A program made the position numbers and the translations under genes. Under the pieces are notes generated by a model. The model was not told where the DNA came from. It made no database searches and saw only the letters and a list, made by a program, of their open reading frames with translations. Below are positions 30,496 to 35,239 of a DNA stretch of 64,000 bases, piece by piece. Every line of letters begins with the position of its first letter. The first letter of the stretch is position 1. Origin of the DNA: a virus. The stretch lies in UHGV virus genome UHGV-0073881. One strand, 5' to 3'.

Positions 30496-31848
30496 ATGTG
30501 GAATCCAATTGTTAATGTAGATATTACATTGAACACAGCAGGGACTACGAGAGAAGGTTTTGGACTGCCATTATTCTTAGCTTCAACAGATAACTTTGAA
30601 GAAAGAATTCGTGGTTATACTTCACTAACTGAAGTTGCCGAAGACTTTGATGAAAGTTCTGCTGCATACAAAGCTGCAAAACAGCTATGGAGTCAGACTC
30701 CAAAAGTAACTCAACTTTATATTGGTAGACGTTCTATGCAGTATACCGTTGCTGTTCCTGATGCCGTTGCTGAGAGCACAGAATACTCTCTTACAGTTGC
30801 TGTAGGTGGTGGTGTATCTCAGCCATTCCAGTACACAGCTAAGGCCGATGATACAGCCCTGATTGTTCTGAATGAATTTAAAACTCAGATTGAAGCAAGC
30901 CCTGCTGTTAAAGATGATGTTCAGGTTAATGTAACAGGTGCTGGTGACTCAGCTACAATGATTATCTCCAAAGCAGGTGATAATGATTTCGTAAAAGTTA
31001 CCACAACTGGTAAGACTCTTTCAATCTCTTCTACGACTGCTGACAGTGCATCAACTGCTCTCTCTGCAATTGAAACGTACTCAACAGATTGGTACTTCAT
31101 TGCAACAGAAGACAGAACTTCACAGTTTGTCTTGGCAATGGCATCTGAAATTCAGGCTCGTAAGAAGATTTTCTTCACAGCTAACTCTGATGTGAAAGCT
31201 CTACAGGGAACCGACCTAGCTTCTGCTACAGACGTACCAGCACAGCTTGCTAAATCCAAGTACACTCGTACAGTTTGCTTGTGGCATCACACTGCAAGAT
31301 ACGACTACCCAGAAATGGCTTACATTGCTTACGGTGCTCCATATGACGCAGGTTCCATTGCTTGGGGTAACGCTCAGTTGACGGGTGTTGAAACATCTTA
31401 TCAGCCAGCTAACAAGAGACCTCTGACAAGCATTCAGAAATCTGCACTAGATGCACGTAGCTGTAACTTCATTGACCTTGATGGTGGTGTTCCGGTTGTG
31501 CGTAGAGGTATCACTTCAGGTGGGGAATGGATTGATATCGTTCGTGGTGTCGATTGGCTGACTTCTGACTTGAAAACTTCTCTGAGAGACTTGCTAATTA
31601 ATCAGAAGGGTGGTAAGATTACTTATGATGATACTGGTATTACTCGTATTCGTCAAGTCATTGAAACATCTCTTCAGAGAGCGGTTAACAGAAACTTTTT
31701 ATCATCTTACACCGTTAATGTACCTAAAGCTTCTCAGGTTTCTTTAGCAGACAAGAAAGCACGTATCCTGAAAGATATTACCTTCCACGGTATTATCGCA
31801 GGTGCTATCTTGGATGTTGACCTGAAAGGTACAGTGGCTTACGAATAA
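30496..31848 (+). CDS. tail sheath protein (putative)
   Basis: 450 aa ORF followed by a 148 aa ORF, two chaperone-sized ORFs and a tape measure gene, the usual contractile-tail order. Confidence 0.55.
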   Translation: MWNPIVNVDITLNTAGTTREGFGLPLFLASTDNFEERIRGYTSLTEVAEDFDESSAAYKAAKQLWSQTPKVTQLYIGRRSMQYTVAVPDAVAESTEYSLTVAVGGGVSQPFQYTAKADDTALIVLNEFKTQIEASPAVKDDVQVNVTGAGDSATMIISKAGDNDFVKVTTTGKTLSISSTTADSASTALSAIETYSTDWYFIATEDRTSQFVLAMASEIQARKKIFFTANSDVKALQGTDLASATDVPAQLAKSKYTRTVCLWHHTARYDYPEMAYIAYGAPYDAGSIAWGNAQLTGVETSYQPANKRPLTSIQKSALDARSCNFIDLDGGVPVVRRGITSGGEWIDIVRGVDWLTSDLKTSLRDLLINQKGGKITYDDTGITRIRQVIETSLQRAVNRNFLSSYTVNVPKASQVSLADKKARILKDITFHGIIAGAILDVDLKGTVAYE

Positions 31849-31863
31849 TAGGAGTACTTTGGA

Positions 31864-32310
31864 ATGGCTATGTATCAGCAATATTCCCCTAAAGACGTAG
31901 TTTGTAGCTGGAATGGTATTGCCATCGAAGGCTTTGCTCCAGACTCTTTCCTACGCCTACAGAGAACATCACCACTTGTTACACCAGTTGTTGGTGCAGG
32001 TGGTCAGGTAGCTCTGACAAGAAACGCAGATAAGACAGGCACTATTGAGATTGAGCTAATGCAGACCTCTCTATCTAACCAGATTCTTTCTGCGATTCAA
32101 GCTAAACAGGACGATATGGAACTTGAAGAAGATATCTCTTCTAACTTCGTAATCTATGACCCTTCGGGGTCTGTAATGGCAACTGGTATTAATGCTTGGT
32201 TGCAAGAACTTCCACAGGTTGAGTTAGGTCGTGACCAGAACTCTAAGACGTGGATTTTCGGATGCGAACGTTTAGACTATACTTCTACAGTACCAGCGTC
32301 AAGCGTTTAA
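31864..32310 (+). CDS. tail tube protein (putative)
   Basis: 148 aa ORF directly after putative sheath; RBS TAGGAG. Confidence 0.5.
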   Translation: MAMYQQYSPKDVVCSWNGIAIEGFAPDSFLRLQRTSPLVTPVVGAGGQVALTRNADKTGTIEIELMQTSLSNQILSAIQAKQDDMELEEDISSNFVIYDPSGSVMATGINAWLQELPQVELGRDQNSKTWIFGCERLDYTSTVPASSV

Positions 32311-32388
32311 TAAATCCTAATAAGGGGGAGACTGTAAAAGGTCTTCCCCTTTTGTGTTTTTGTACACCAATAATTTTAAGGAATCACA

Positions 32389-32796
32389 ATGAAGACTCAA
32401 ACCAAACACATTAATGGAAAGAAAGTAACTATTATTCTTTTAGGTGCAAGAGAAGGTATTAAAATGTCTATGAAGCTCGGTAAAGTAGTTGTACCGACAT
32501 TTGCACAGATGCTTTCTAGTTTAACTGGAAATAAAGAAGCTGAAGAAGCTCCGAAGGTTCCATTTAAAGAACTTGTAGAAGCTTGCTTTGACAGAATTGA
32601 TGAGTTGGATATTGACTCAATGGCAGAATTACTATTTCAGGGGGCAACAGTTGATGACTTCCCACTGAAAGTTGACTCTTACTTCCAAGGAAACTACGGA
32701 GAATTTATTGACTTCTTAGCATTTGCTCTGGAGGCTAATTTCGGAAGTTTTTTCGAGGCAAGCATTTTCAAAAGCCTAACTTCTCAGGAAGCTTAA
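32389..32796 (+). CDS. tail assembly chaperone (putative)
   Basis: 135 aa acidic ORF immediately upstream of tape measure region. Confidence 0.5.
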   Translation: MKTQTKHINGKKVTIILLGAREGIKMSMKLGKVVVPTFAQMLSSLTGNKEAEEAPKVPFKELVEACFDRIDELDIDSMAELLFQGATVDDFPLKVDSYFQGNYGEFIDFLAFALEANFGSFFEASIFKSLTSQEA

Positions 32797-32804
32797 GATA
32801 TGCT

Positions 32805-33032
32805 ATGCAGACCCCACTGACTGATGGGGCTGTAGAAGCAACTTATGAAGAAGCAGATGAGATGAAATTTGTGCTTGCTATTTACGGTATGGAAGGGTGC
32901 AAAGAAACACTTGACCAACTTTTCTCTATGTCCTTCACTGACCTACTATCATTACGTCAGTATCTGGAAATCCAGAGGTCATACAAAGAGGAAATTGCTT
33001 ACAACGAACTTAGAAAGGCAGGTAAAATTTAA
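32805..33032 (+). CDS. second tail assembly chaperone ORF (putative)
   Basis: 75 aa ORF in a different frame between chaperone and tape measure gene. Confidence 0.4.
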   Translation: MQTPLTDGAVEATYEEADEMKFVLAIYGMEGCKETLDQLFSMSFTDLLSLRQYLEIQRSYKEEIAYNELRKAGKI

Positions 33033-35239
33033 TGGCACAATATACAGTTGATAGTTTTATTGTTGAGTTGGGCTTTAGTGAAAAGGTTGTGAAGGGTTTA
33101 CAAAGAGTTGAAAAGATGGCTATGCAATCTGCACAACGAATTGAAAGAAACCTGAATAAAGCCTTTGCTGTGAAGCCAAATAAAAACTCTCAAGAAGCTT
33201 TAAACAGACTTGTTAAAAACGCTCAGACTGCTTCGGGCAGAATCAATAAAGCCCTGAACAACTCCCTTAACTTAGACTCCCAAGGTGCAAAGTCTCTGAA
33301 GAAATTAGAGACACAAGGTAAGAAGACTGCCAAAGAAATTAATAAGGCTCTAAGACAGGCTATGAATGTTGATGGTAAAGTCAAGATTCGTGGTGTTGGT
33401 AGAGGCCGTGGTAATTCTAATCCTCCAATTGGTGGAGGTTCACCAAGAGTTAGACCTGATATTGCTCAGAGACAAATGGAAAGAATGTTTAATAACAATT
33501 TCTACTCTGGCCTTACTCGTCGTCTTGAAACTATTGGTGGACAGGGTAACCAAATGGCTGCTTCTTTCAGAGGCAACTTGCAAGGAATCTATAACAAGTA
33601 TAAAGGGAGTGGTAAGGTTGGTGAATATGAGATGGAAGTTAAAAAACTCATTGACACAACCAAAAGATGGGTAATTGCAGAAAATGCTAGACTTAAGGCA
33701 GTCAAAGAATCAGCATGGCTACAGGATAGAGCAAACTCTTCACTAAGACAACTAGTAGGTGGTTTTGTTTCTGCATACGCTATGTTAGAATTGGCTCAGA
33801 AGACTATTGATGCAGGTGTTAAAAGACAATCTGCACAGTTAGCTTCTACGGCAATCTTTGGAGCAGATACACAGCAAGCTAGAATGTTCGCTGCATCGTT
33901 CGCTCACCAGATTGGACAGAACTACACAGACACTATGAAGCAGTATTCAAACTTTGCTGCTGGTGCTCAACCAACACTTGGTTTCCAAGGTACTCAAGAG
34001 TTCTATAAGAATGCTGCTATGTTTGCCCGTATTAGAGGGGCATCTGACGAAGACCTGAAAGGTATCATGGTTGCTTTCCAACAGATGGCTTCTAAGGGTA
34101 AGATTCAGGCTGAAGAACTTCGTGGACAGTTAGGTGACCGTTTAGCTGGTGCTGTACAACTGTTTGCTGACGCGATTGGTAAGACCCCACAGGAACTGGA
34201 TAAACTGATGAAGGATGGTAAACTTCTTGCTAAAGACGTTCTTCCTCAAGTTTCTGAGAAGATGAGAGAGTTAGTAGAAGCAGCAGGTGGTATGAATGCC
34301 GTGTCTAAGCAGACAGCTACTTCTATGGGTCAAGCAAAAGCTATGTGGGACAATACCCTCGTAGCACTGTTTAACAACTCTAGTGAAGGTATTTCACAGT
34401 TGTCTAACTCAATTTCAATGTTCTTACAAGGTTCCCTTGGTACTGCTGAAGCTTTAGGTACTGGTATTGGATACCTGTTAAAAGGTGCTGGAAACTTACT
34501 TGATTTCATTACAGACATTATGTATAGAATCTCTGGGCTGTACTACCTATCTATGGGTTATTACAACGAATTAGATGCTAGTCAACAGAAACTTGTAAAA
34601 GAAGCTTCTGAGTTCCTTGCAACAGTTATTGCTATTGGTGCTGCTGTAGCAACGGTCGCTAAAGTGGCGAAGCTTATCACTGGATTCTTTGATACAGCAA
34701 TTGTACGAAAGATTCTTCAGAGATTTGGCATTGAGGTGGCTGAGAAAGTTGCACCAAGAGCAGCTCCATTTTTAATGCCACCTCAAGTAAAGGTGGCCTT
34801 GGCAACAATTGCACTATCTAGGTCTTCTGACCCTAATGCTGGAAAGAGATACAATGAGGTCACTCTTCCAAAACCTTTTGAAGATGCTGTATCAAGTGTT
34901 ACCAACGCTAAACGCCCAATGTTCTTTGACCAGAATGGACAGTTGCAGTTTGCACAATATACGACTGACACTGATGGTAACATCCAAAGAGTTGATAATG
35001 GTATGTCAAATTGGGATATCATTATGAACAACTTGTCAGAGTCTTTAAACAACTTTGCAAACAAGTTCAATCAGACCCCTATGATGATGACACCTTCTGG
35101 ATTACCTATGCAAACTAAGCAGACTCTTAATGTCACGTTTAACCTTGATGGTAACCAGATTGCTACTAAGATGGTCGATATTACTAACAAGAACCAAGAA
35201 GATATTTTGTTAAACTCAGCTTACCCAGAGGATAATTAA
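33032..35239 (+). CDS. tail tape measure protein
   Basis: 735 aa, long low-complexity helical protein with Gly-rich segments, after chaperone ORFs. Confidence 0.8.

Follow-up and report, generated by a model that had tools for sequence, protein, structure and literature searches.

Two short open reading frames, ORF1 and ORF2, lie in different frames immediately ahead of the tape measure gene in the virus genome UHGV-0073881, and the question raised by this locus is whether they are translated independently or joined, through a programmed frameshift, as the two parts of a tail assembly chaperone pair. We analyzed a 64,000-nt stretch of this genome (hereafter the window, to which all coordinates refer) together with related loci from other phages. 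A first-pass annotation of the window had proposed a frameshift between the two ORFs on the basis of their position. Our analyses upheld this proposal and suggested that a chaperone pair of the lambda G/GT type is very probably encoded here, with ORF1 as its G part, ORF2 as its T part and programmed -1 ribosomal frameshifting as the means of expression, a reading of the sequence that is supported by an in-phase slippery heptamer, matches to chaperone families, conservation, codon choice, suppression of synonymous variation and the annotation of relatives. The literature searched contained no experimental detection of the fusion protein in a Felix O1-like phage, and the support is therefore comparative.

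The gene pair and its probable slip site

DNA similarity placed the window among the Felix O1-like myoviruses (Ounavirinae). When the tube-to-tape-measure region was used as query, the nearest relative was Escherichia phage pEC-M719-6WT.1 with 98% nucleotide identity, and members of Felixounavirus, Mooglevirus and Suspvirus matched at about 86-88%. According to the ORF list and profile matches, the gene order on the + strand is tail sheath (30496-31848, phrog_205), tail tube (31864-32310, phrog_280), ORF1 (32389-32796), ORF2 (32805-33032) and tape measure protein (33032-35239; Pfam TMP_3, E = 3e-16; phrog_4036, 1399 bits). ORF1 starts with ATG and codes for the putative G chaperone, a standard translation product of 135 aa and about 15 kDa. 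ORF2 also starts with ATG and codes for 75 aa in the -1 frame relative to ORF1; both ORFs and their different frames were confirmed by an ORF listing and a frame map. ORF1 matched Pfam PF21822 (Phage_TAC_15) with E = 4.3e-22 and 79.4 bits, above the gathering cutoff of 22, over residues 9-125 (profile positions 1-124 of 127), and it also matched phrog_1613, a tail assembly chaperone family (E = 1.3e-48). ORF2 matched phrog_4963, which is labelled tail assembly chaperone and corresponds to the T part (E = 6.7e-51), over its full length (residues 1-75, profile positions 5-79 of 79). The position typical of a chaperone pair ahead of the tape measure gene was thereby borne out, since the ORFs lie directly between the tube and tape measure genes and both match chaperone families.

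An intrinsic-terminator-like hairpin with a T-rich tail (TTGTGTTTTT) was also observed at 32322-32351, between the tube gene and ORF1, and the record of phage Michonne carries an annotated terminator at the equivalent place. This hairpin may lower the expression of the chaperone and tape measure genes relative to the sheath and tube genes.

The -1 frame of ORF1 contains TAA at 32736-32738, is open from 32739 onward and ends with the stop at 33030-33032, overlapping ORF1 by 58 nt. The first-pass annotation had noticed no canonical slippery heptamer by eye and had pointed to the neighborhood of 32760-32800 as the place for one. This was mistaken: a canonical T_TTT_TTC (U_UUU_UUC) lies within the overlap at 32748-32754 on the + strand, slightly upstream of that interval and in X_XXY_YYZ phase with ORF1. 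Read in ORF1 as AGT TTT TTC (Ser-Phe-Phe), the heptamer is located 9 nt past the opening of the -1 frame and 48 nt ahead of the end of the ORF1 stop codon. It is the sole in-phase X_XXY_YYZ heptamer within ORF1 and, across about 17,600 codons in 83 putative genes of the window, the one occurrence of an in-phase TTTTTTY. All in-phase X_XXW_WWZ heptamers taken together occur at 0.31% per codon, so that the overlap, with its 17 codon slots, would be expected to contain about 0.05 of them. A chance origin of the heptamer is thus unlikely, given both this low expectation and its uniqueness. Sequences of this kind are prone to slip: in E. coli, unstimulated shifting at U_UU.U_UU.C and U_UU.U_UU.U exceeds 0.1%, and the H_HH.U_UU.Y motifs rank with the most efficient in that species (PMC4066793). 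An alternative slip at the TTTTCAAAAG stretch (32765-32774) was rejected, as no re-pairing into the ORF2 frame is possible there. The +1 frame of the window closes 28 nt past the ORF1 stop.

From the observed anatomy, conservation and selection of the sequence, we infer that slipping takes place at the heptamer and that it concerns a minority of ribosomes. Most ribosomes would read ORF1 to its stop and produce the 135-aa chaperone (G), and the minority would slip with tRNA-Phe on UUU in the P site (32749-32751) and on UUC in the A site (32752-32754). Both tRNAs would move back one base onto UUU UUU, C32754 would be read again as the first base of the next codon, CGA (32754-32756), and translation would proceed in the -1 frame to the stop at 33030-33032. 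The T segment entered in this way (32754-33032, + strand) comprises 92 codons plus the stop and includes ORF2, and its stop codon is overlapped by the tape measure start codon. The predicted G-T fusion has 214 aa and about 24.2 kDa, made up of 122 G residues followed by RGKHFQKPNFSGSLRYAMQTPL and onward to the end of ORF2. Its junction would read ...ANFGSFF|RGKHFQKP..., with VDSYFQGNYGEFIDFLAFALEANFGSFFR as the junction tryptic peptide; the coding sequence of the -1-frame peptide PNFSGSLR (32775-32798) precedes the ORF2 ATG. By analogy with lambda gpG and gpGT, G and the G part of GT would coat the tape measure protein, the T part would recruit the tube protein, and neither G nor GT would be retained in the virion.

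A search of solved structures (PDB) with the ORF1 sequence returned only a chance hit (E = 0.74). AlphaFold2 modelling of the 214-aa fusion with 27 aligned homologues gave a mean pLDDT of 61.6, residues 124-189, which make up most of the T part, scoring below 50, and Foldseek comparison of this model with the PDB gave no match below E = 0.25. With a low-confidence model and no informative Foldseek match, fold evidence adds nothing to the argument.

Conservation and selection in related phages

The comparison set comprised 92 related loci from GenBank phages and IMG/VR, or 93 sequences with the window, which fall into 27 clusters below 70% identity, with identity down to about 26-30%. Erwinia and Pectobacterium phages (about 45% identity to ORF1) as well as marine Alteromonas and Pseudoalteromonas phages (about 30%) are included. 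Across this range, 92 of the 93 sequences carry an in-phase T_TTT_TTC or T_TTT_TTT together with an open -1 frame across the site. At the loci covering the whole region, the -1 frame extends 113-275 nt beyond the ORF1 stop, and its end in annotated relatives coincides with the tape measure start or falls just short of it. The +1 frame of the related loci closes 4-109 nt beyond the ORF1 stop. The T parts of 26 lineages could be aligned from the first post-slip residue and have a conserved domain in common. In distant relatives the nucleotides after the heptamer differ, whereas the heptamer, its phase and the open -1 frame encoding the homologous T domain are kept. The first post-slip codon was always CGN (Arg) where the heptamer ends in C, as with CGA in the window, and TAC (Tyr) at related loci where it ends in T.

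Because the peptide pattern of a second IMG/VR scan ended in FF, the conservation of Phe-Phe is partly a product of selection of the loci, while codon choice is unaffected by it. The first Phe codon was TTT in all 27 clusters, against 82 TTT to 103 TTC (44% TTT) elsewhere in ORF1, and the codon before Phe-Phe always ended in T (AGT in 23 clusters, GGT in 2 and TCT in 2).

Nucleotide variation further marks out a dual-coding, almost invariant stretch that starts at the slip site (32746-32784, + strand). Among 30 unique Felix O1-like sequences, only one of its 39 columns was variable, compared with 44% upstream. Variable ORF1 third positions amounted to 1 of 13 within the stretch and 92 of 119 upstream (Fisher p = 1.2e-6), a contrast to be read with the reservation that the clusters are phylogenetically related and p-values therefore overstate independence. 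The conservation profile of eight Ounavirinae reached 0.86-0.90 over 32744-32771, the peak of the whole ORF1-ORF2 region. Furthermore, 251 of 295 phage records have a 45-nt slip-site element with at least 95% identity, and this element still reaches 88% in those Erwinia phages that have an ORF1 protein of just 44% identity. Dual coding from the heptamer onward predicts such suppression of synonymous variation, whereas independent initiation at 32805 does not.

Escherichia phage CL1 (OK040806, 1052-1066) has seven Ts instead of six, and the extra T fuses G and T exactly at the run, giving one 213-aa CDS named 'tape measure chaperone'. This was the only seven-T frame fusion among the 92 fetched loci, and the seventh T may reflect an error of homopolymer sequencing or else a real variant, which would make only G-T. 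In a large protein database, the fusion query retrieved only G-length proteins (124-143 aa) and no natural in-frame fusions, and the T-part query retrieved only 6 short ORFs. Some host labels in the set also call for a remark. The genome of 'Listeria phage LPML1' (OK283618) belongs to the Ounavirinae despite its label, its 45-nt slip-site element being as similar to that of the window as the element of Erwinia phage phiEa104 is, and single 'Staphylococcus' and 'Campylobacter' phage records match the window at more than 80% DNA identity. The group infects Enterobacteria, and the host labels of all three look doubtful.

Candidate stimulators and rival explanations

A Shine-Dalgarno (SD)-like GGAGG at 32730-32734 on the + strand, 13 nt 5' of the heptamer, is a candidate upstream stimulator. 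Of 30 representative lineages, 24 have an SD-like motif (GGAGG, AGGAG or GGGAG) at 11-13 nt ahead of the heptamer, and the residues encoded by it differ (Leu-Glu-Ala versus Lys/Arg-Glu). Its codons are biased: the Glu codon was GAG rather than its synonym at 22:5 within the motif versus 115:162 elsewhere (p = 7e-5), and the Lys codon was AAG at 12:1 versus 102:140 (p = 4e-4), both values being calculated with the kinship of the sequences ignored. SD-like stimulators of -1 shifts act at a spacing of 9-14 nt (PMC5009743). The motif, the codon bias and a spacing inside this reported range together point to an upstream stimulator similar to that of dnaX, and GGAGG 13 nt upstream probably boosts slipping by pairing with 16S rRNA, as it does there.

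Downstream of the heptamer, no convincing stimulatory structure emerged. The 46 nt after the heptamer folded no better than shuffled sequences (z = 0.12), nothing significant adjoined the heptamer within 32755-32840, and the mean z of the downstream fold across 27 lineages was -0.85, a weak and inconsistent tendency. An Rfam scan of 32300-33100 gave no match at E <= 1. It seems that no downstream structure at the usual spacing of 5-9 nt is involved. A stimulating effect of ribosomes queued at the stop codon or at the hairpin described below was rejected, because the distance from heptamer to stop varies from 42 to 153 nt among relatives.

A stable hairpin does occur at 32801-32840 on the + strand, just 3' of the ORF1 stop, with a folding energy of -19.4 kcal/mol (z = -4.2; none of 200 shuffles was as stable). 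Its start, 46 nt past the heptamer, is too distant for it to act as a classical stimulator. In 13 Felix-like sequences, 89% of the cells were paired, and two pairs differed on both sides, one from C-G to A-U and the other from A-U to G-C by way of synonymous changes in Pro and Asp codons. The hairpin contains the ORF2 AUG (32805-32807) and may hinder independent initiation of ORF2; in Felix O1 itself, the ATG is outside the hairpin.

These features bear directly on the rival explanation that survives best, namely that there is no frameshift and that ORF2 is translated alone from the ATG at 32805, by means of an upstream AGGAAG or through termination-reinitiation, with G and T as separate proteins. 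The ATG is indeed placed only 9 nt past the ORF1 stop codon, and AGGAAG can pair with the anti-SD at -4.3 kcal/mol, but this motif is weak and lies 14-19 nt from the ATG, the SD score of ORF2 is the weakest of the 18 starts in the structural block, and in the window the ATG is buried in the hairpin. Many GenBank records of Felix O1-like phages, the closest included, show two separate genes, yet most lineages are without a start near this position while their -1 frame is open from the heptamer. Specifically, the first -1-frame ATG comes 35-73 residues into the T part in most clusters, so T is not expressible there as a separate gene, and neither phiEa104 nor LPML1 has an ATG at the position corresponding to 32805. 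One Felix O1-like contig (IMGVR_UViG_3300045988_004167) has ATA at the position of the ORF2 ATG (ACATAGGTAAC versus ACATGGGTAAC) with the -1 frame open, which is consistent with an ORF2 that would need no start of its own. In addition, the conserved -1 codons ahead of the ATG (RGKHFQKPNFS...) and the suppressed synonymous variation of ORF1 are left unexplained by independent translation, and we regard it as very unlikely, although in this phage some T may also be made alone from this ATG by initiation or re-initiation.

The same fusion protein would also arise if RNA polymerase added one U in the T6 run and the edited mRNA were translated normally to G-T. A single extra T suffices to fuse the frames, as the CL1 record illustrates, and T7 runs are found in distant relatives; productive bacterial cases of transcriptional slippage, however, are described for runs of about 9 A or T (PMC5009743), whereas the run here is of 6. 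Moreover, the X_XXY_YYZ phase kept in 92 of 93 loci matters for tRNA re-pairing and not for polymerase slippage, and the selected SD-like motif 11-13 nt upstream would stimulate ribosomes. Polymerase slippage is likewise very unlikely. Least credible of all is that 32746-32784 is an RNA or DNA element of other function with the heptamer and open frame as by-products. The very high nucleotide conservation of the stretch could in principle stem from such an element, but it shows no significant local fold and no Rfam match, and in distant relatives the T-encoding -1 frame stays open and the heptamer stays in phase although the nucleotides that follow it differ.

Under the preferred reading of programmed -1 ribosomal frameshifting, it is conceivable, though on balance doubtful, that a three-part signal is characteristic of the whole PF21822 family, consisting of an invariant U6Y, an SD-like stimulator 11-13 nt upstream and, in Felix O1-like phages only, a covarying hairpin after the stop. 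Such a signal might, again tentatively, have its SD-like stimulator kept by synonymous codon choice and its hairpin burying the ORF2 AUG in the subgroup of the window, though not in Felix O1. If so, the buried AUG would leave T available only as the G-T fusion, and the three-part signal would add a small refinement to an established mechanism without amounting to a new one.

Known systems and annotation

Lambda gpG and gpGT are encoded by overlapping ORFs between the major tail (tube) and tape measure genes (Levin et al. 1993; Xu, Hendrix & Duda 2004, via PMC5009743), and in long-tailed phages ribosomes that slip by -1 shortly before the first ORF ends yield a minor fusion, an arrangement conserved despite low similarity (PMC5009743). 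The window resembles the lambda pair in its ORF order, in a putative -1 slip near the end of ORF1 and in an arrangement conserved at low similarity; we found the position between tube and tape measure genes, the overlapping alternative frame, the in-phase slip site and the conservation in divergent relatives that characterize G/GT-type pairs. The lambda heptamer is G_GGA_AAG, in contrast to U_UUU_UUC in the window, and the phage of the window further differs from lambda in its contractile tail and in an ORF1 that belongs to a different chaperone family (PF21822).

With E. coli dnaX, the window has in common a heptamer of two identical-base triplets and an SD-like motif within 9-14 nt (GGAGG, 13 nt). 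In dnaX, A_AAA_AAG is combined with a strong downstream stem-loop, about 50% of ribosomes shift, and the shifted frame terminates one codon later to give the shorter gamma subunit (PMC5009743). In contrast, no stem-loop was found in the window at the usual spacing of about 5-9 nt, and its shifted frame continues for 92 codons.

The closest comparison is offered by phages Moogle (KM236239), Michonne (KT001916) and Mijalis, which have the same gene pair at the same position with the same TTTTTTC heptamer, and whose flank (GGAAGTTTTTTCGA..GCAAGCATTTTCAAAAGCCTAACTTCT) is near-identical to that of the window at a nucleotide identity of about 86%. Their genome announcements state a -1 frameshift, citing Xu, Hendrix and Duda 2004, and do not mention the upstream SD-like motif and the post-stop hairpin. 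In GenBank, the Moogle and Michonne entries each have a joined CDS named 'tape measure chaperone', and the Michonne note 'ribosomal slippage (47149)' corresponds to locus position 1377, inside the homologous TTTTTTC (1374-1380). In the record of pEC-M719-6WT.1, with 98% identity to the window, the pair is annotated as two separate hypothetical proteins. The predicted frameshift is an ordinary one of the G/GT type, already annotated in close relatives, and the additions made here are small, namely a U6Y heptamer that is invariant across the family, an upstream SD-like motif with signs of selection and the hairpin after the G stop. The first two of these offer a clear and testable case of a phage chaperone frameshift with a candidate SD-like stimulator, and leave the understanding of the mechanism unchanged.

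The main value of the analysis lies in annotation, in that records now showing two separate genes, or a wrong name for ORF1 such as 'head closure protein' or 'tape-measure protein', need a joined CDS annotated with ribosomal slippage at TTTTTTC. Felix O1-like phages are used in Salmonella and E. coli typing, biocontrol and therapy, and correct annotation of their structural genes consequently has some practical use. The public names of ORF1 homologues are likewise inconsistent and range over 'head closure protein', 'Hc1 head...', 'tape-measure protein' and 'tape measure chaperone'.
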